Source: an uncultured Methanosarcinaceae archaeon
GTDB taxonomy: Archaea; Halobacteriota; Methanosarcinia; Methanosarcinales; Methanosarcinaceae
Direction: 5' to 3'
DNA length: 64,000 bases
Assembly (NCBI GenBank): GCA_963727895.1
Contig: CAVSHT010000005.1
Span: 192,001 to 256,000, forward strand
In this document: one piece after another, positions 45,818-54,210 of the stretch
Numbering within the stretch: the first letter of the stretch is position 1
Layout of the letters: each line of letters opens with the position of its first letter
Notes under the pieces: model-generated
Databases searched by the model: none
What the model was told of the DNA's origin: nothing
What the model saw: the letters and a program-made list of their open reading frames with translations, nothing else
Position numbers and translations under genes: made by a program

Positions 45818-47182
45818 ATGAAGATAAAATCCATTAATCCTTATACAGAAGAAGTAAACTGGACATATGACTTATTTTCTTTTGAAGAATATGAGTCAAA
45901 GATTGAAAACTCAAGAAATGCTTTTTTCGGATGGAGTTCATTGTCTACTGAAGAAAGGACAAAGTACTTTTCAAGAGCGGGGAAGATTCTTCGACAAAAT
46001 ACTGAGGTTTATGCCAAAATTATTACGAAGGAAATGGGAAAACCTATCAGACAGTCCAGAGACGAAATTGAAAAATGTGCATTTCTCTGTGATTATTATG
46101 CAGAAAATGCAGCTGAGTTCTTAAAAGATGAAATCGTGGAAACCGGAACAGAAAAAAGCTATGTGACTTTTGAACCTCTTGGGGTAATACTGGGGATCAT
46201 GCCCTGGAGTTTTCCATTCTGGCATGTCTTCAGGTTTGCAGTACCTGCGATGTGTGCTGGAAACGTATGTATAATCAAGCACGCTTCGAATGTTCCAGAA
46301 TCGGCACTGGAGATTGAAAAGGTCTTTCTTGAGGCTGGATTTCCTGAAAATGTATTTAATATCTTATTAATAGATTCAAAAACATTAATGGAAATTATTG
46401 AAGAGGAAATGATAGATGGAGTTTCGTTCACTGGCAGTGTAATTGTAGGTTCAGAGATCGGTGAACTTGCGGGGGGACTGATAATGCCTTTTGTATTGGA
46501 ACTAGGAGGATCAGATTCCTTTATAGTTCTTGAAGATGCCGATATTGAAAAAGCTGCACAGACGGCCATAAAATCTCGTTTTCTCAATAATGGACAGAGC
46601 TGTATTGCTGCTAAACGACTTATTGTCTTAGAGGATATCGCTGTGGACTTTATCGAAGCACTCAAACTTGAAATTCAAGAGCTGAAAATCGGAGACCCTA
46701 TGGATGAGGAAATCGATCTGGGACCTCTTGCAAAGAAAGAACTTATAATTAGCCTGGAAAAAGTATTGAAAGACGCAAAAAAGAAAGGTGCAGAACCTCA
46801 CATTTACGGAGAAGAACATAAAAAAGGTTTCTTCTTCAGACCAGTCCTTATACCTGCAGCCAGTACCGATATGAAGGTTTGTAATGTAGATGTTTTTGGA
46901 CCTATTGTCTCAGTAATCACAGTAAAGGATGAAGACGAAGCTGTCAAAGTTGCAAATTCCACAGAATTCGGTCTTGGAGCAGAGATCTGGTCCAGAGATC
47001 TCGAAAGAGCCCAAAGACTGGCAAAAAGAGTGAAATCAGGATTTGTGGCCATTAATGGAATGGTTAAACCCGATCCAAGGCTGCCTTTTGGTGGAGTAAA
47101 GAAATCAGGAATTGGGAGAGAACTTTCCCATTATGGACTTAAAGAATTTGTGAATATAAAAACGATAGTCATCAATAAATGA
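45818..47182 (+). CDS. NAD(P)-dependent aldehyde dehydrogenase (succinate-semialdehyde dehydrogenase-like)
   Basis: EMGKP, KHAS, FTGS, LELGG, GQSCIA, FGP, PFGGVKKSGIGREL. Confidence 0.93.
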   Translation: MKIKSINPYTEEVNWTYDLFSFEEYESKIENSRNAFFGWSSLSTEERTKYFSRAGKILRQNTEVYAKIITKEMGKPIRQSRDEIEKCAFLCDYYAENAAEFLKDEIVETGTEKSYVTFEPLGVILGIMPWSFPFWHVFRFAVPAMCAGNVCIIKHASNVPESALEIEKVFLEAGFPENVFNILLIDSKTLMEIIEEEMIDGVSFTGSVIVGSEIGELAGGLIMPFVLELGGSDSFIVLEDADIEKAAQTAIKSRFLNNGQSCIAAKRLIVLEDIAVDFIEALKLEIQELKIGDPMDEEIDLGPLAKKELIISLEKVLKDAKKKGAEPHIYGEEHKKGFFFRPVLIPAASTDMKVCNVDVFGPIVSVITVKDEDEAVKVANSTEFGLGAEIWSRDLERAQRLAKRVKSGFVAINGMVKPDPRLPFGGVKKSGIGRELSHYGLKEFVNIKTIVINK

Positions 47183-47434
47183 AGCTCACATAACTTGAGA
47201 TTTATTGAAGCTTAATTGAAGACACCTTATCCAGATATTATAAAAAATGTGTATAGGCTTGAGATATAATTTGGTTAAGATTAAAATCCTACTCAAGCCT
47301 AAAAATAAAACTGAATTTAAGCTTAACAAACAACTTTAATCGAAGCTTATAATATCTAATCAAAGCCTAATTAAAAGACTTGTATTAAATTAATTCAACT
47401 TAAATAAAAGCCAAATAGTATGCGGGGTTTTTTC

Positions 47435-49070
47435 ATGAAAGCTTCAGATCTTTTTGTTGCCCAGTTAGAAGAAGAAGGCGTTGAATATATTTTTGGACTA
47501 CCTGGTGAAGAAAACCTTGACCTTCTTGAGTCCCTAAGAACTTCCAGAATCAAATTGATAATAACAAGGCATGAGCAAGCCGCAGCATTTATGGCTACAA
47601 CATATGGAAGGCTGACAGGAAAGCCAGGCGTCTGTTTTTCAACGCTTGGACCTGGAGCTACAAATCTAGTTACAGGCGTTGCTCAGGCACAGCTTATAGG
47701 AGCTCCTCTTGTTTCCATATCAGGACAAAAAGCTCTCGTTGACAACTGGCAGGCTCGTTTTCAGTTAGTAGACATTGTCAGGATGATGGAGCCGCTCTGT
47801 AAAAACGCTGTATCCATTACCGATCCTGGAATGATTCCCACAGTAATCCGCAACGCTTTCAAGCATGCGGAAGCTGAAAGACCAGGAGCCATACATATTG
47901 AACTTCCTGAAGATATAGCTGAAGAAGAGACGGACACGGTAGTGCAGAAGAGGGGCGATGTTAAAATCCCTTATCCGAATCTAGAATCTGTTAAAAAAGC
48001 CGCTAATATGATTTGTGATGCTAAAAATCCCCTGATAATGGTTTCCTCAGGTGCAAACCGGAAAGCAATCAATGATGCACTTGAGAGATTTTGTGGAGAG
48101 AACAGGCATTTATCTGGTGCATACCCAGATGGGGAAAGGAGTTATTCCAGATGACTGCATTTATAGCCTTTTTGCTACAGGGATTCATGCAAGGGACTAT
48201 GTTAACTGTGGAATTGATGGGGCTGACCTCATAATCACTATTGGATATGATATAGTGGAATATCCTCCCTACCTGTGGAACAAGACGCTTGATAAGCAGA
48301 TCATAAATATTGATTTCGTAGAATCTGTACCTGATAGATACTTTAATCCCATCGTAGAAATAATTGGGGATGTAGCCGTTTCAATAAGGGAACTTGCTGC
48401 ATGTATTCCAGAAAAACGTGAGTTTCCTATCTTTGAAAACACCAGACGTTTCATTGAGGAAAAAATAAATCCTGTAGTTAAGAAAAGTTATCCTCCTATC
48501 CCACAGGCTGTAGTTCAGAGTGTAAGAAAGGTGCTTGGAAGGGAAGATATAATCACTCTGGATAACGGGATTTATAAACTGTGGTTTGCTCGTCTTTACA
48601 AAACTTATGCTCCTAATACTATTATCCTTGACAATGCCCTTGCAGCTATGGGTTCAGGGCTTCCAGCAGGAATCACTGCAAAACTTCTTTATCCTGAACG
48701 TCGTGTGCTTGCAATATGTGGGGATGGAGGGTTCATGATGAACTGCCAGGAACTTGAAACCGCAGTACGCTATGGAATCCATGTTGTTGTTCTTATACTC
48801 AATGACAACGGTTTCGGTTTTATTAAATGGAAGCAAAAAAAGATGAATTTTGAAGATTTTGGACTGGACTACGGAAATCCTGATTTTTCTCTCTTTGCTA
48901 AGAGTTTTGGAGCTGCTGGTTTCAAGATCATGGAAGAGGACGATCTTGAAGAAGTTCTAGAGAGAGCTTTTTCACTGAATAAGGCAGTAGTTATCGAGTG
49001 TCCTATTGACTATTCCGTGAATTATGAAACTTTTTCAATAGAACTGGGAAAGCTTACATGTATATTCTAA
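47435..49070 (+). pseudogene. Acetolactate synthase large-subunit-like TPP enzyme, one frameshift near 48085
   Basis: FGLPGEEN, RHEQAA, GPGATN in the first frame; TQMGKG, GDGGF..N, NPDF in the second; one extra base in CTTGAGAGATTTT. Confidence 0.88.
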
Positions 49071-49248
49071 TTAGCATGCAAATTTGACTGGAAAGCTGGA
49101 CTTGCAGATTAATGTTCTTTACAAGTTATACCCCTTCAACGTAAAGTCCTAGAGGATGTAATTTGGATGTAAAAAATAATGTAGAGAACTTGATCTCATG
49201 TCATAAATGTATAATGTGAATATAAAGTTATAATTCGTACCCAGCATT

Positions 49249-49324
<76 letters not shown>

Positions 49325-49559
49325 TAAAACGTAGTAATTCTATTTTGTCCCTTAATCTTCTCATGAACTATAATGGGAGTTAATGAGAATTCAACTTGAA
49401 AGTGTAACGTCTGGAAGTAAAAAACTGTTTAAAATTATTTGAAATATTGAGCAATTAACTATTGAATTAAACAGGGTCAATTTTGAAGTAGAGTCATTTT
49501 CTGCTTGATCCTAATTTTATGAGTAAAACTTATATAATTTGACTGAATAGTAAAAACAT

Positions 49560-49679
49560 TAAAAATAAAGAGATGTATAATCTGTTATTAAAAACTAGTT
49601 TCTGTTTTTAATCAAAGAGCAATACACAACCTTATTTTTAAAATAGTTACTATCCGTTGTAAGCGGAGGTGAAAAGAAA
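49560..49679 (+). promoter_or_regulatory. Structured 5' leader, copy A (long hairpin plus SD-overlapping hairpin)
   Basis: TAAAAATAA/TTATTTTTA, TGTAT/ATACA and ATTAAAAAC/GTTTTTAAT stems; TCCGTT-GTA-AGCGGA overlaps GGAGGTG; TATA box at about 49530. Confidence 0.7.
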
Positions 49680-49883
49680 ATGGCTTTTAATGACAGAGGT
49701 AACTCTTTCAGAGGAAGGGACAACAACCGGGGAGGTTTCGGAGCTCCCAGAGAAATGTTTAACGCGATCTGTTCAGACTGCGGTGCTGAAACTCAGGTAC
49801 CTTTCAGGCCTGACCCTGATAGACCAATATACTGCAGAGAGTGTCTTCCGAACCATAGGAAACCCAGAGAAAACAGATATTAA
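49680..49883 (+). CDS. CxxC-x17-CxxC domain protein with Arg/Gly-rich N-terminus
   Basis: CSDC-17aa-CREC, VPFRP..DRPIYC; GGAGGTG SD. Confidence 0.92.
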   Translation: MAFNDRGNSFRGRDNNRGGFGAPREMFNAICSDCGAETQVPFRPDPDRPIYCRECLPNHRKPRENRY

Positions 49884-50213
49884 TCTACCGGTTTGATTCT
49901 AAAAGTTTTTACTTTAATCCTTTATATGTCTGTTTAGTTTTGCTTGAGCAGACCAAACGGACCTCCTTCTTTTATAGTTTTTACATGCAATAGTATTGTG
50001 TTTTTAGCTCTGTACTATATTTAGAAGTTAGTTTAGAATTATTTCATGACTGCACAACCATAATTGAAAAAAACTAAAGGTAGTTAAATAGAGATACGAT
50101 AAGTGCGTGAAGAATTATATGGAAAAGGAGAAAAGGTTTTACCGAAAATTGGTTAAAACCAAAGTATATCAGGATAATATGATATTATTAATTTTACTTA
50201 TATTGTTTGGACC

Positions 50214-50558
50214 TTACTTTAAATACCCTTTTCTTTCAAGCCATTCAACTTGAGGTCTTGTGTATTTCCAGATTACATCTGCTTTAGAATCCTGGATTTC
50301 CCAAGGAGCGACGATTACTACATCTCCTTCGTGGATCCACATTTTCTTATTTTTAGAACCAGGAATACGACCCATTCGGACTATACCGTCCATACATTGC
50401 AATGTGACTCTTTTTGAACCTAAAAGGTTTCCTACGGTTGCCAAAACTTCATGGTTTTCTTTGCGTGGTGTACGTACTCTTGTTACTTCCTGAGTCGCAG
50501 GCATGGAATTTCCAGTCCCTGCTTTTTTCTTTCTTATATTGCTTCTATAGTTAGCCAG
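50214..50558 (-). CDS. eif1a: Translation initiation factor aIF-1A; probable CTG start at 50558 (ORF-track ATG at 50504 is in frame)
   Basis: [48 protein letters not shown] 6 nt before CTG-GCT-AAC-TAT-AGA. Confidence 0.93.
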
Positions 50559-50934
50559 GTTAATTCCTCTAATATTATCAATTCATATCTTTATTTTTAT
50601 TAGTTAGTTATAATTTATAAGAAATTTAAGAATTTATGTGACTACATATAGTTTACATATTTTGACATTAAGGTTCGTAAAAGGATAATAGTTAAGGAAC
50701 TTTTCAGAAGAGATTATAATCTCTATAAATTCTGAATTTCAGAAAGCTTACATTTCAAAGATTTGTTGGAAAATTTTCAGTTATCATTTGATCCACATAC
50801 TGAACATTTACTTTAAAATTCTTTAGGATCTATTACAGCTTCAGATATGAAAAATATCTGTAAAAATTTTAAAGCATATTTTATAAATGCAGTAAAGTAT
50901 ACTTTATTTAAATCTAACTTCAACAGGCTTTAGT

Positions 50935-51137
50935 TTTGAAATTCCTGTAGCCAAACAGGCAATCTCTGCAATAAACTGGCCGACATTGTTGGTTTGAACA
51001 GACTTTAGTTTCAATACCAAGCTCAGAACTATAACCTTGTGCATTTCTAGATGGGCATTCTTGCAAACTTTGAAACTTCCATGGATGCTATTTCAATTGC
51101 CTCCATGATAGGAACTTCCTATGCCATTAAAACTTAT
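50935..51137 (-). pseudogene. Third, decayed CxxC-x17-CxxC paralog (not in ORF track)
   Basis: ATA-AGT-TTT-AAT (compare MSFN), then fragments EMHKV, SELGIETKV, FKPT, RPVYCRDCLFGYRNF with frameshifts. Confidence 0.8.
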
Positions 51138-51256
51138 TTTTGTTTAACCTTTGTAAGATAAAGGTACATATATTCGATAAATAATGATCGGATGCAACTA
51201 TTATTTAAAAACAAAAATGAGTTTTTAATAACAGATTATATGTTTCATCACTTTTA
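51138..51256 (-). promoter_or_regulatory. Structured 5' leader, copy C
   Basis: Same core TATAATCTGTTATTAAAAAC...GTTTTTA; outer stem AGTGAT/ATCATT; CCTTT...AAAGG hairpin at the decayed SD. Confidence 0.62.
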
Positions 51257-51376
51257 CTGGATATATAAGTCTTCCAATGCTATATAAGATTAATCCAATA
51301 ACAAGCTGGGAACTATAAGCAACATCCTTCAGGATAATAATCTGTCATCAATTATACGCAAAAATAAAGAGAATTT

Positions 51377-51401
51377 GGAAACCTTTCTACAGAAAGGTTC
51401 C
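51377..51401. terminator. Inverted repeat downstream of the 51443-51664 gene
   Basis: GGAAACCTTTCT-AC-AGAAAGGTTCC, with a T-rich tract after it on the minus strand. Confidence 0.5.
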
Positions 51402-51442
51402 TATTAATATAATTATAATTGAAAATAATTGAATTTCGAAAT

Positions 51443-51664
51443 TTAGAACTTTCTGTGGTTTGGCAGGCAATCTCTACAGTAAACCGGTCTTCCCTCAGCT
51501 GGTTTGAATGGAACCTGTGTTTCTACACCACAGTCAGAACAAACTGCAGGGTACATTTCTGTGGGGCCGCTGTTGCCACCTCTAAAACCTCCGCGGTTAT
51601 TGTCTCTGTTTCCCCGGTTGCTGTCTCTTCCCCTGAAAGAGCTCCCTCTGTCATTAAAACTCAT
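51443..51664 (-). CDS. CxxC-x17-CxxC domain protein with RG/RGG-rich N-terminus
   Basis: CSDC-17aa-CRDC; paralog of 49680-49883; GGAGGTG SD. Confidence 0.92.
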   Translation of the reverse strand: MSFNDRGSSFRGRDSNRGNRDNNRGGFRGGNSGPTEMYPAVCSDCGVETQVPFKPAEGRPVYCRDCLPNHRKF

Positions 51665-51787
51665 TCTCGTTTCACCTCCGCTTATAGCGGATTAGTCTAT
51701 GTTGCTATAAAAATAAGATCTATACATTCTTTTATTAAAAACAAAAATGAAGTTTTTAATAACAGATTATATGACTCTTTATTTTTA
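51665..51787 (-). promoter_or_regulatory. Structured 5' leader, copy B
   Basis: TAAAAATAAAGAG..TATAATCTGTTATTAAAAAC-loop-GTTTTTAATAAAAGA..TATA..CTTATTTTTA, then TCCGCT-ATA-AGCGGA over the SD. Confidence 0.7.
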
Positions 51788-51977
51788 CTGCCATTATTTC
51801 TCAAGCTTTTATTATATATAAATATATCTGATTAATGCATAAAATTCCTACAACAGAAGCTGTAAAAAAATGCATAGAAATAATATATATAAATTTAAAA
51901 CTTTTTTTGAAAGTTGCCTGCTCAATTTTGAATTTTCAGCTCGATAAAAAATATATTGAAACCGAAGAAGTTAAAGT

Positions 51978-53636
51978 TTAATATTTAAACTTCAATTTCA
52001 TTCCACAGAAAGGACAAAAATTTGGGGTTGTGGAAATATTCAATTTTCGAGAGCAATATGGACAAATCAGTCTGATCCCTCTTTTTTCTCCAGGACTCAA
52101 GCTTTGATGGGCTCTTGATTCTTCGGCCTCCTCAACAGAAACTGAAAGTTCAAGTTCTTTAAGAGAGTTTATGCTATATATATCACATGAAATATTTGAA
52201 TCCTGATTTTGAGTTTCAGAATTATTGGACATCAGATGTTCTTTTAGAACAGATTTTGCATCAGAAGTTTCGACTTTATTTTGAAGGTTTACCAGCGATG
52301 GAGTAGTTTTATTAATCCTTTCTAAGGCTTTTAATGCAGTCCTTCGTATGCAAGCATCTGGACTTTCAGTAGCTTTAACAATTCCTGCAACTGCTTCTGA
52401 AGTTCCAATTTTTTCAAGCGAAGAAATGACTACTTTTTGCATAAGGCTTTCTGGAGTCTCAAGGATTCGGATCAGTTCCGGCACAGCCTGTTGCGCTTTG
52501 AGATCACCAAGTGTAGAAGCTGCAGCTTCTCTTACTACTGCTTTAGAATCATTAAGAGCTTTTAAAAGACCTGAGATCGCTAAAGGAGTACCGGCTTTAC
52601 CAAGAGCCACGACTGCAGATTCCCTTACTGAACTATCAGGATCATTAAGAGCTTTAACTAATCCTTCTATAGCTTCAGGAGTTCTGTTTTTTCCAAGAGC
52701 ACAGGTAATTGTTCTCCTTAATGAGTTTTCATAAGTCTCGAAAGCTTTAGTAAGTCCCATTGCGGCCTCAGGAGTGCCAATGTTTCCCAAGGCGTCTGCA
52801 GCTCGGCTTCTCAAATACCAGTCTGGATCATCAAGAGCTTTCAAAAGTCCTGAGACCGCCTCAGGCGTACCTATCTTCCAGAGAGTTTCAATTGATATTT
52901 TTCTCACATCTCTACTCGAAGCCCCTAGTGCTTTGACAAGTATAGGTACTGAAGTTGAGTCACTTAATATTTTGCAAAGTGTTTCGGAAGCAGCTTCTTG
53001 TACAGGCTGTCTTGGATCCTTGATAGTTTCCATCAATTCATCAAGTACGTCAATTTTTCCCCGTTTTCCCAGAGTTTCAGCAGCTTGTCGGCTTATTTTA
53101 TTATCCGGGTTTTCAATAGCTTTTACCAAGCAGATAGCAGCTTCGTAAGTATCAATTTTCCCAAGTGCTATTATTGAAATTCTTTTCAACGAATCATCCG
53201 GATAAGTCAAGGCTTTTTCAAGGCCATAAATAGCTTCTTGAGAACCTATTCTCATAAGGGATTTCACAGCTTCTTTCTGAACAAATTTATCTTTATCCCC
53301 AAATCCTTTAATAATACCTGAAATTGCCTCTGATGTGCTTATTTTTTCAAGAGAAGAGATTGCAGCCTTTTTAACAGGACTTTCAGAGTCATCAAGAGCT
53401 TTTATAAGACCGGGAACAGATTCTGGTAATTTAAATTTCCCAAGAGCTTCTGCAACGGCAATTCTTACCTTTGAACTTGAATCATCCAGCGCTTCAATAA
53501 GTGCAGGCAAAGAGGATGGATTTTCTAATTTTCCAAGTTCTTCGGCAGCAATTGCTCGATTTCCTGCAAAGACTGAATGTTTTAATTTTTTAATAAGATT
53601 CTTGATATTCTCATCCATTTCTCTTCTATCCCCCAT
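51978..53636 (-). CDS. HEAT/PBS-lyase repeat protein with C-terminal zinc ribbon
   Basis: Repeated L..AL.D....VR..AA.ALG; C-terminal CPYC...FCPFCG. Confidence 0.93.
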   Translation of the reverse strand: MGDRREMDENIKNLIKKLKHSVFAGNRAIAAEELGKLENPSSLPALIEALDDSSSKVRIAVAEALGKFKLPESVPGLIKALDDSESPVKKAAISSLEKISTSEAISGIIKGFGDKDKFVQKEAVKSLMRIGSQEAIYGLEKALTYPDDSLKRISIIALGKIDTYEAAICLVKAIENPDNKISRQAAETLGKRGKIDVLDELMETIKDPRQPVQEAASETLCKILSDSTSVPILVKALGASSRDVRKISIETLWKIGTPEAVSGLLKALDDPDWYLRSRAADALGNIGTPEAAMGLTKAFETYENSLRRTITCALGKNRTPEAIEGLVKALNDPDSSVRESAVVALGKAGTPLAISGLLKALNDSKAVVREAAASTLGDLKAQQAVPELIRILETPESLMQKVVISSLEKIGTSEAVAGIVKATESPDACIRRTALKALERINKTTPSLVNLQNKVETSDAKSVLKEHLMSNNSETQNQDSNISCDIYSINSLKELELSVSVEEAEESRAHQSLSPGEKRGIRLICPYCSRKLNISTTPNFCPFCGMKLKFKY

Positions 53637-54210
53637 TAGTGTAAAACTTACTCGACCCAGTTTTAATTCAAATATTTAGTAATTTACAGTTTAGATAAAT
53701 AAAAATAAATAAAATGTTCTTCAATATGAGAATTCTAAAAGTGATATTTTCAATCTGGATTTTTAGTATGTTGACAATATAATTTCATAAATTATAACTC
53801 ATCTATTTGATTTTAGGGCTAGAAAGTTGCAAATATCCCCCTCTTTACACTATCAAATTCAACCCTTAACATTTTTTATTTTTAAAGATATTACATTCTA
53901 AGATATATTAACTTTTAGCTTGCTAATATGATAAAACGAGACTATTAGTGAAAATAATTAGGTATTAACAGAATAAGCAACCCATATATTGTTACTATAC
54001 CACTAGCATTTATATTCTCAAGTATCTCCACAATATTCTCAATTTTCTCCTTAAAATGAATACACTATTTGAAAAAATCCTTGAAACATTATTCATTTTT
54101 TAAATTAGCATTAACTGACATTTATCCATTATTATTTTTTTAACTTTTTATAAATAAAAATAGAAATGTCTATATAATTTATAGTCTTCATATTTTAATG
54201 GAGGATTCTT

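Follow-up and report, generated by a model that had tools for sequence, protein, structure and literature searches.

A conserved leader RNA of zinc-ribbon genes in Methanosarcina-like archaea with two predicted, mutually exclusive folds

The 5′ untranslated region (UTR) of the Escherichia coli cspA mRNA adopts two alternative folds, of which the one made first and favored in the cold is translatable. In the MS2 maturation gene and in hok mRNA, phage and plasmid RNAs of bacteria, a kinetic trap delays folding. To our knowledge, natural cis-acting translational RNA switches are almost unknown in Archaea, and we know of no natural archaeal RNA thermometer. In Methanosarcina mazei, translation is regulated by a designed structure that occludes the ribosome site, and the 2024 methods paper on this design states that archaea had seen no earlier use of RNA thermometers (PMC11549558). 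Here, we describe a leader of ~120 nucleotides (nt) found ahead of genes for small CxxC-x17-CxxC proteins in an uncultured Methanosarcinaceae archaeon. Three copies lie in the window, the whole 64,000-nt stretch that was analyzed (assembly GCA_963727895.1, contig CAVSHT010000005.1, positions 192,001 to 256,000). The element is a real, strongly selected, and uncatalogued RNA. Folding models suggest that it is probably a cis-acting mRNA element with two mutually exclusive folds. That these folds would control translation is our interpretation of leader conservation, complementarity, codon constraint, joint change of loop and spacer, and near-equal energies, all of which are computed.

In the proposed mechanism, one state (fold H) would be a long hairpin formed locally where the transcript begins, at its extreme 5′ end, leaving the start region single-stranded (ON). 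In the other (fold L), the 5′ arm of this hairpin, together with the apical loop and the Ts that open the 3′ arm, would pair with the transcript's own initiation region. This target stretches from the last base of the Shine–Dalgarno (SD) sequence across the ATG as far as the end of codon 6, and the resulting ~26 pairs would block ribosome binding (OFF). Because the 3′ arm resembles the start region, the 5′ arm can pair with one or the other but not with both. The 3′ arm may act as a decoy that, by this resemblance, keeps the 5′ arm occupied. Fold H would form first, as transcription reaches the 3′ arm ~70 nt ahead of the start region. At 37 °C, fold L is predicted to be the equilibrium state of most copies, hiding the ATG and codons 2–6. 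Candidates for what sets the balance are temperature, with cold keeping fold H, the time since transcription, and an RNA-binding factor, for example the encoded zinc-ribbon/RG protein.

This arrangement resembles cspA, whose gene encodes a small, abundant nucleic-acid-binding protein, in having a long 5′ leader and two folds that differ in exposure of the start; here, the open fold gains below ~15–25 °C in the models. An earlier sequence-only reading of the window had offered cspA as an analogy, and the comparison is more apt than the mechanism that it proposed, with two folds predicted and cold favoring the open form in the models. Unlike cspA, the present element has an archaeal host and a TATA/B recognition element (BRE) promoter, shares no sequence or model similarity with the bacterial leader, and precedes a gene for a zinc ribbon rather than an OB-fold protein. 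Its blocking helix uses codons 2–6 and the hairpin's own loop, it occurs in 2–12 copies per genome, and its response to cold is a prediction of the models. As in the MS2 maturation gene and hok, an upstream leader segment complements the initiation region and would shut it at equilibrium, with a transient local hairpin delaying this outcome; the sequences are different, and the idea draws here on transcription order and predicted energies. With the ROSE and fourU thermometers and the designed M. mazei thermometer, it shares the use of structure at the site of ribosome binding, three SD bases being paired in about half of the copies. It differs from ROSE and fourU in direction, the predicted accessibility of positions −3 to +18 falling with heat.

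All three units lie between positions 49500 and 51850 of the window. In unit w1, the leader (49556–49679, + strand) is directly followed by a gene (49680–49883, +) for a 67-amino-acid CxxC-x17-CxxC zinc-ribbon protein with an RG-rich N-terminus. In unit w2, the leader (51665–51791, − strand) directly precedes a gene (51443–51664, −) for a 73-amino-acid CxxC-x17-CxxC protein. Both proteins are members of the CxxC-x17-CxxC domain family and score above the curated cut-offs, with 72.2 bits (w1) and 72.5 bits (w2) for TIGR04272 (cut-off 36) and 67.9 and 67.5 bits for PF23477 (zf_Tbcl_2; cut-off 27). The leader of unit w3 (51135–51260, −; 67 bits under the covariance model R1 described below) has a decayed gene behind it (50920–51137, −), in which ATA stands in place of the ATG, a TAG stop occupies codon 3, the reading frame is disrupted, and the first CxxC has been lost. 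This body scores 14.5 bits against TIGR04272, under the cut-off of 36, and is not a member. Thus, where the sequence-only reading had counted three paralogs with leaders, two are genes and w3 is a pseudogene. The features that it had listed for the leaders themselves were recovered: the exact 20-mer occurs in each (49576–49595, +; 51752–51771, −; 51221–51240, −), TATA-like boxes precede the leaders at the distance that it gave, and each leader folds on its own into a long AU-rich hairpin, with z-scores of −2.97 (w1), −3.87 (w2), and −2.82 (w3) against 200 dinucleotide shuffles. The 20-mer has two further occurrences on another contig of the same genome.

The genome contains eight copies of the element, three in the window and five in a second cluster, each ahead of a CxxC-x17-CxxC gene. 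R1 (93 positions, 28 pairs) was built from these eight copies; its structure was written by hand, as RNAalifold gave a meaningless 8-pair helix on the eight copies, the 3′ half of which MAFFT had misaligned. A search of 150 other genomes of the family gave matches in 33 of 34 genomes of the same genus, 2 of 2 of a second genus, and 6 of 6 of a third, that is, in 41 of the 42 genomes of three Methanosarcina-like genera, and in none of the 108 genomes of 13 other genera. Matching genomes carry 1–12 copies (2–12 except for one incomplete genome). When R1 was applied to 80 loci from Archaea and Firmicutes that encode relatives of the protein, 19 matched, all of the Methanosarcina type. The remaining 61 loci, from other lineages, gave no match at E ≤ 1, and the upstream regions of 18 of these fold without a homologous hairpin. 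The collected set comprises 107 matches from 73 sources, 88 of them distinct. An intact CxxC-x17-CxxC open reading frame (ORF) lies within 140 nt of the model end in 92 of 102 distinct contexts, starting 11–42 nt past it (26–37 nt in 84 of the 92); of the other ten contexts, six contain decayed copies and four are cut by the locus end. The element thus belongs exclusively to the CxxC-x17-CxxC gene family, on which the first reading had noted three examples. A search of Rfam was negative: cmscan with Rfam 15 over window positions 47000–54000, both strands, gave no match on the leaders at E ≤ 10, and off the leaders it gave the chance hits snoU36a (18.7 bits) and Histone3 (15.4 bits). No description of the leader was found in the literature searched, a scope that excludes the 2009 M. 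mazei transcriptome paper and ribosome-profiling supplements, where it may be among small-RNA candidates.

Conservation of the leader is strong. Among 91 copies, mean pairwise identity is 0.88 in the hairpin, close to the 0.92 of codon positions 1 and 2 of the zinc ribbon, compared with 0.58 at codon position 3, 0.49 in the upstream region from −40 to −1 (which includes the TATA box), and 0.32–0.35 in the flanks aligned without gaps (positions −70 to −41 and 60 nt downstream of the stop). Recent duplication or gene conversion alone is insufficient to account for this pattern, because pairs of copies with third positions less than 60% identical still have hairpins 0.86 identical. These data bear out strong purifying selection on the leader. 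An imperfect inverted repeat beside a strong promoter could also be a palindromic operator in the DNA, bound by a transcription factor just downstream of the start site. We consider this extremely improbable. Non-Watson–Crick cells of the hairpin comprise 95 G-U and 30 A-C, an asymmetry that fits a helix in the sense-strand RNA; in a DNA palindrome, the two would be symmetric. Matches of R1 on the opposite strand score 22–38 bits, versus 57–99 bits for sense matches in the same search. An operator would also not account for constraint that extends into codons 2–6, where synonymous sites are fixed, or for a loop that varies together with the spacer, both of which are described below.

The promoter places the hairpin at the 5′ end of the transcript. 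The TATA box TTTATATA is matched at 8 of 8 positions in 72 of the 91 copies and at 7 of 8 in 18, including that of w1 (49529–49536, +); the box of w2 lies at 51815–51822 (−). The distance from its first base to model position 1 is 27 nt in 65 of 91 copies and 25–29 nt in 85. In Methanolobus psychrophilus, mapped start sites lie ~19–22 nt from the TATA/promoter (PMC5378194). The fixed distance and the spacing in this relative therefore predict a start at model positions 1–4, that is, at the foot of the hairpin, whose first paired base is model position 4. Metatranscriptome contigs of close relatives (95–99% identical) cover the leaders and genes, and those of two studies stop at 51783 and 51788, where the w2 hairpin has its foot. 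The end of a contig is no proof of a start, and we take these ends as a weak hint of one. As the contigs break at the repeated 20-mer, they are uninformative about the 5′ end of w1, transcript levels, and early termination, and the uncovered stretches 49300–49572 and 51848–52000 carry no evidential weight. Together, the conservation, the folds, and the TATA-predicted start agree with the first description of the element as a conserved, structured 5′ mRNA leader. An upstream ORF was considered and rejected, the ATG in the w1 leader (49574) being ACG in most copies.

Archaeal RNA polymerase terminates at oligo-T, and the leader contains two T5 tracts (49605–49609 and 49635–49639 in w1) that are almost invariant, the second of which comes after the complete hairpin. 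These tracts could be terminators of a transcription attenuator that yields a short leader RNA unless a factor prevents it, and three species keep the leader with its coding sequence deleted. The T tracts are, however, needed in any case as pairing partners of A tracts, and RNA contigs in three records cross both of them into the gene. Attenuation appears very unlikely.

Fold H extends over 49559–49641 (+) in w1, with basal and middle stems, a 3-bp stem, and a 9-bp apical stem (90.5 bits under R1), and over 51708–51787 (−) in w2. On the model-fitted alignment, 95.4% of 2444 cells are paired. Few pairs have changed on both sides: the first hairpin pair went from UA to GC or GU in 12 sequences, the base of the apical stem went from AU to GC in eight, and AU became CG in two. 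Slid controls give similar counts of double changes, and so the pairing that survives sequence change in the three window copies does not amount to more than weak classical covariation within the hairpin; the weakness follows from a nearly invariant sequence. Unpaired internal-loop bases are as conserved as paired ones, which a plain hairpin leaves unexplained.

The hairpin's 5′ arm, together with the loop that had been called variable, is antisense to the initiation region (−10 to +18) of the gene that it precedes, a feature newly reported here. In w1, the 5′ arm TCTGTTATTAAAAAC (49581–49595) complements codons 2–6, GCTTTTAATGACAGA (49683–49697), and the loop and following Ts extend the pairing over the ATG and spacer to the last G of the SD. 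The whole anti-initiation segment (49581–49608, +), which consists of the 5′ arm, apical loop, and start of the T run, complements 49670–49697 (+), a region that contains the spacer, the ATG at 49680, and codons 2–6 and is the target of fold L. The corresponding segment of w2 (51738–51766, −; 5′ arm, loop, and T run) faces an initiation region at 51647–51674 (−) with its ATG at 51664–51662 and AGT as codon 2, for which the loop has matching bases. The apical part of the hairpin's 3′ arm in w1 (49604–49619, +) is like the start region at 13 of 16 bases, by eye. Over 84 distinct copies, the duplex of leader and start region has a mean energy of −23.6 kcal/mol, compared with −8.7 kcal/mol (standard deviation 2.6) for shuffled start regions, and none of 1680 shuffles reaches the observed mean. 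On a plain MAFFT alignment of these copies, the 26 defined long-range pairs are formed in 95.2% of 2149 cells, compared with 46–57% for slid partners. Run unguided on the same alignment, RNAalifold returns the long-range helix as the consensus, not the local hairpin. Fold L is also the minimum-energy structure in five of the seven intact copies of this genome (48–60 nt of coding sequence included) and in 54 of the 71 copies tested. The limits of the long-range helix coincide with those of conservation, an indel-rich spot before the 5′ arm and the variable codon 7. The G at 49584 (alignment column 34) is unpaired in fold H and nearly invariant, and in fold L it pairs with the C of codon 5 (GC in 79 copies, GU in three).

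Codon choice within the target region is skewed as well. Codon 3 (Phe) is TTT in 81 of 81 copies, although TTC outnumbers TTT by 222 to 22 elsewhere in these genes. Codon 4 (Asn) is AAT in 75 and AAC in four, compared with 224 AAC and 101 AAT elsewhere, and codon 5 (Asp) is GAC in 79 and GAT in three, compared with 200 GAC and 85 GAT. AT-richness near starts is not the cause, because the genome-wide share of TTT in codons 2–6 is only slightly raised (0.69 versus 0.64) and the GAC preference runs in the opposite direction. The bias at codons 3–5 appears to be caused by pairing with the leader. These observations also bear on the idea that the hairpin is a 5′-terminal stabilizer only, shielding a very abundant mRNA from 5′-to-3′ decay, with the complementarity to the start incidental. 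The predicted start at the hairpin foot and the G-U excess expected of a sense-strand helix agree with such a role, and one study reports effects of 5′ UTRs on mRNA fate in the cold adaptation of a related methanogen (PMC5378194). A stabilizer, however, needs structure and not 88% identity that reaches into the loops. It leaves unexplained both the reversed codon choice at codons 3–5 and a duplex energy ~15 kcal/mol beyond that of shuffles, and we regard it as quite unlikely.

The apical loop, which the sequence-only reading had described as variable, is not free and changes together with the spacer and the context of the start codon. All 20 copies with the spacer AAGAAA have a TTTC loop, the C of which faces the G at −4, and copies with A at −4 have mostly T-only loops. 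Where codon 2 is AGT, three of four loops are TCAT and pair with it, the fourth being divergent; where it is GGT, six of 11 loops are of a CTC type and five are of the common CCA type. In duplexes computed for each sequence, position −4 forms A-U, G-C, G-U, or C-G, and position −5 forms C-G in 51 copies and A-U in 26. AAC at codon 4 is found in five contexts, with G as the facing leader base in four. Cognate combinations of loop and spacer score −10.08, versus −9.59 (standard deviation 0.19) for permuted combinations, and 43 of 5000 permutations are as low. This co-change supports fold L without proving it. On the other side of the balance, the loop and spacer evidence comes from few lineages that share ancestry, and optimal duplexes computed per sequence are biased toward pairs.

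The near-invariance of the hairpin has another potential explanation, in which the leader does not refold and is a platform for a sequence-specific RNA-binding protein, most simply the encoded zinc-ribbon/RG protein acting autogenously. The 3′ arm and the start region would then be two copies of one binding motif. Conservation of unpaired hairpin columns at the level of paired ones is in line with this explanation, as are the restriction of the element to this gene family, on every paralog and in 2–12 copies per genome, and the RG-rich tails of the encoded proteins. Orthologs from M. mazei are zinc-binding proteins and belong to the highest-confidence identifications of small proteins in proteomic analyses (PMC12704099). 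RNA-binding activity is, however, not known for the family, and autoregulation and the RNA-chaperone activity proposed in the sequence-only reading would be candidate functions. A protein platform would explain neither why G 49584 matches the C of codon 5 instead of pairing with the 3′ arm nor why the loop tracks codon 2 and the spacer. As an account of the leader without refolding, it seems unlikely to us. Protein binding would be compatible with a switch if the protein sets the balance between the two folds.

The energies of the two folds are close and depend on temperature. With each fold enforced in turn, the energy of fold L minus that of fold H, averaged for 71 copies (49 of them at 65 °C), is +0.85 kcal/mol at 5 °C, −0.15 kcal/mol at 15 °C, −1.2 kcal/mol at 25 °C, −2.6 kcal/mol at 37 °C, and −3.5 kcal/mol at 45 °C. 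Between 10 and 45 °C, the long-range helix gains in ensemble probability, from ~0.4 to 0.72, and the unpaired probability of positions −3 to +18 falls from 0.33 to 0.20. These trends are unchanged whether 24, 45, 60, or 90 nt of coding sequence are included. Cold is thus predicted to favor the open form. In w2, fold L is the minimum-energy structure, at −42.9 kcal/mol versus −40.8 kcal/mol for fold H.

Several observations weigh against a two-fold switch. In w1, the hairpin is lower in energy (−40.3 kcal/mol for fold H versus −37.3 kcal/mol for fold L), and fold L is not the minimum-energy structure in 17 of the 71 copies. Differences of 1–3 kcal/mol, and the temperature trend with them, are within the error of nearest-neighbor parameters for AU-rich RNAs and multiloops. 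Only two pairs of the long-range helix have changed on both sides, which 445 of 500 shuffles match, and its covariation score is reached by 21 of 500 shuffles; the sequence is too invariant for more. The 13-bp core went unscored in 16 of 87 copies, owing to a mismatch or to an anchor motif that was not found. A crude test of 57 of the 61 non-Methanosarcina loci gave −16.9 kcal/mol for cognate and −16.4 kcal/mol for non-cognate combinations, with 383 of 5000 permutations as low and many start codons clearly miscalled. Finally, the 3′ arm might resemble the start region because both are binding sites for one protein. Even so, the element is most likely a translational switch composed of a hairpin, an anti-start segment, and a decoy arm, which would make it a new family of a known kind of regulator.

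A second hairpin, which pairs part of the SD, was also listed in the earlier reading, which proposed a thermometer-like or autoregulatory leader. In w1, this hairpin (49647–49672, core 49653–49667, +) pairs the first three bases of the SD GGAGGTGA (49665–49672) through TCCGTT/AGCGGA; in w2, it lies at 51674–51696 (−), is formed by TCCGCT/AGCGGA, and overlaps the same three SD bases. Although present in w1 and w2 as proposed, it is not a family feature: this genome has it in four of its eight copies, and 34 of 65 distinct linker strings across all copies contain it, the other 31 strings being A/C-rich and unstructured. Its variants keep pairing by wobble only, through C-to-T changes on the 5′ arm. 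The SD hairpin thus defines a subclass of leaders and lies outside the core of the element. The idea of a heat thermometer fares poorly, with accessibility that drops as temperature rises and an SD hairpin that is GC-rich and absent from those 31 of 65 linker strings. What stands of the thermometer proposal is a predicted temperature-dependent fold, in which the switch is not melting of the SD hairpin but the alternative between fold H and long-range pairing with the start. The linkers themselves fall into two classes, one with the GC hairpin over the SD GGAGGTGA and one that is A/C-rich and unstructured with a shorter SD (AAGGTGA), and both occur side by side within one genome.

The element is strongly conserved, is found in every Methanosarcina genome sampled but one, and occurs in genetically tractable model species, on genes for zinc-binding proteins of highest-confidence proteomic identification. 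The two-fold model makes opposite predictions for two kinds of mutation: synonymous changes in codons 3–6 should lock the leader ON, and changes in the 3′ arm alone should lock it OFF. If true, such a switch would be notable in Archaea as a new regulator family of a known kind, and it would open a first way into the function of the CxxC-x17-CxxC proteins and of their conserved linkage with additional aIF-1A copies (see below). M. mazei has eight such proteins, two of which were purified and bind zinc, with no known function (PMC12704099); the cloning primers published there appear to match the first codons of copies described here. A relationship to the archaeal ribosomal protein aS21, the zinc-finger protein in the Methanosarcina acetivorans 30S structure (PMC12605026), was considered and dropped, a phmmer search with the w1 protein against all PDB chains returning nothing better than E = 0.65. 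A more far-reaching reading, which we put forward tentatively and think rather unlikely, is that this is the first natural temperature-sensing mRNA of Archaea, a bistable leader, ON in the cold and OFF in the warm, in which a kinetically trapped hairpin opposes a favored duplex of leader and start and which co-ordinately gates 2–12 zinc-ribbon/RG paralogs. Together with the linked aIF-1A, these could be a Methanosarcina counterpart of the CspA/IF1 cold-shock set, and the protein might speed refolding in a feedback loop.

The aIF-1A linkage is seen in the window itself, where a gene for an aIF-1A paralog (50214–50558, −) adjoins w3 downstream on the same strand. Its canonical ORF spans 50214–50504 and scores 168 bits with NF003085, the alignment starting at profile position 15. 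The frame continues upstream as a conserved extension up to a CTG at 50558–50556, which lies after an SD-like motif. The genome has four aIF-1A paralogs, the others being at C8:88019–88297, C8:91815–92087, and C15:31068–31355; three of the four adjoin CxxC-x17-CxxC genes. Among the collected loci, 42 of 138 have an aIF-1A match. All four genes have a conserved in-frame N-terminal extension whose synonymous variation looks codon-like. The extension contains no ATG, GTG, or TTG and begins at a CTG 7–8 nt past an SD-like motif; in two copies, the usual start lacks an ATG altogether. These sequence features suggest a non-AUG (CUG) start for an initiation factor.

All six decayed zinc-finger copies lie 480–670 nt upstream of a same-strand aIF-1A gene. 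Apart from the one in the window (50920–51260), they are found at L089:2057–2149, L092:899–991, L093:2174–2266, L107:2187–2277, and L113:2181–2271. In three large genomes, the coding sequence is almost wholly deleted, and promoter and leader still score 80–86 bits under R1. The three species with these orphan leaders are 90% identical overall, too close to reveal extra constraint on the leader. An orphan leader may serve some purpose there by itself, perhaps within a long transcript of aIF-1A or as a small RNA. Transposase-like ORFs lie between two element copies (L004:1588–2800) in the second cluster, which contains zinc-finger and aIF-1A genes (contig C8), and one of these ORFs starts with a zinc-finger motif typical of insertion sequences.

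Other CxxC-x17-CxxC genes of Methanosarcinales, which lack the hairpin, seem to share upstream motifs within their own groups. Within 170 nt upstream, one motif is shared by L064 and L088, and another by two Methanoperedens loci and Methanolobus (L048, L076, and L070). These motifs may be further leader families. In the window, an intergenic ATA/TAA microsatellite of ~25 units (49250–49324) lies upstream of w1. Divergent to w2, positions 51978–53636 (−) encode a 552-amino-acid HEAT-like repeat protein with a C-terminal CxxC...CxxC zinc-ribbon motif.

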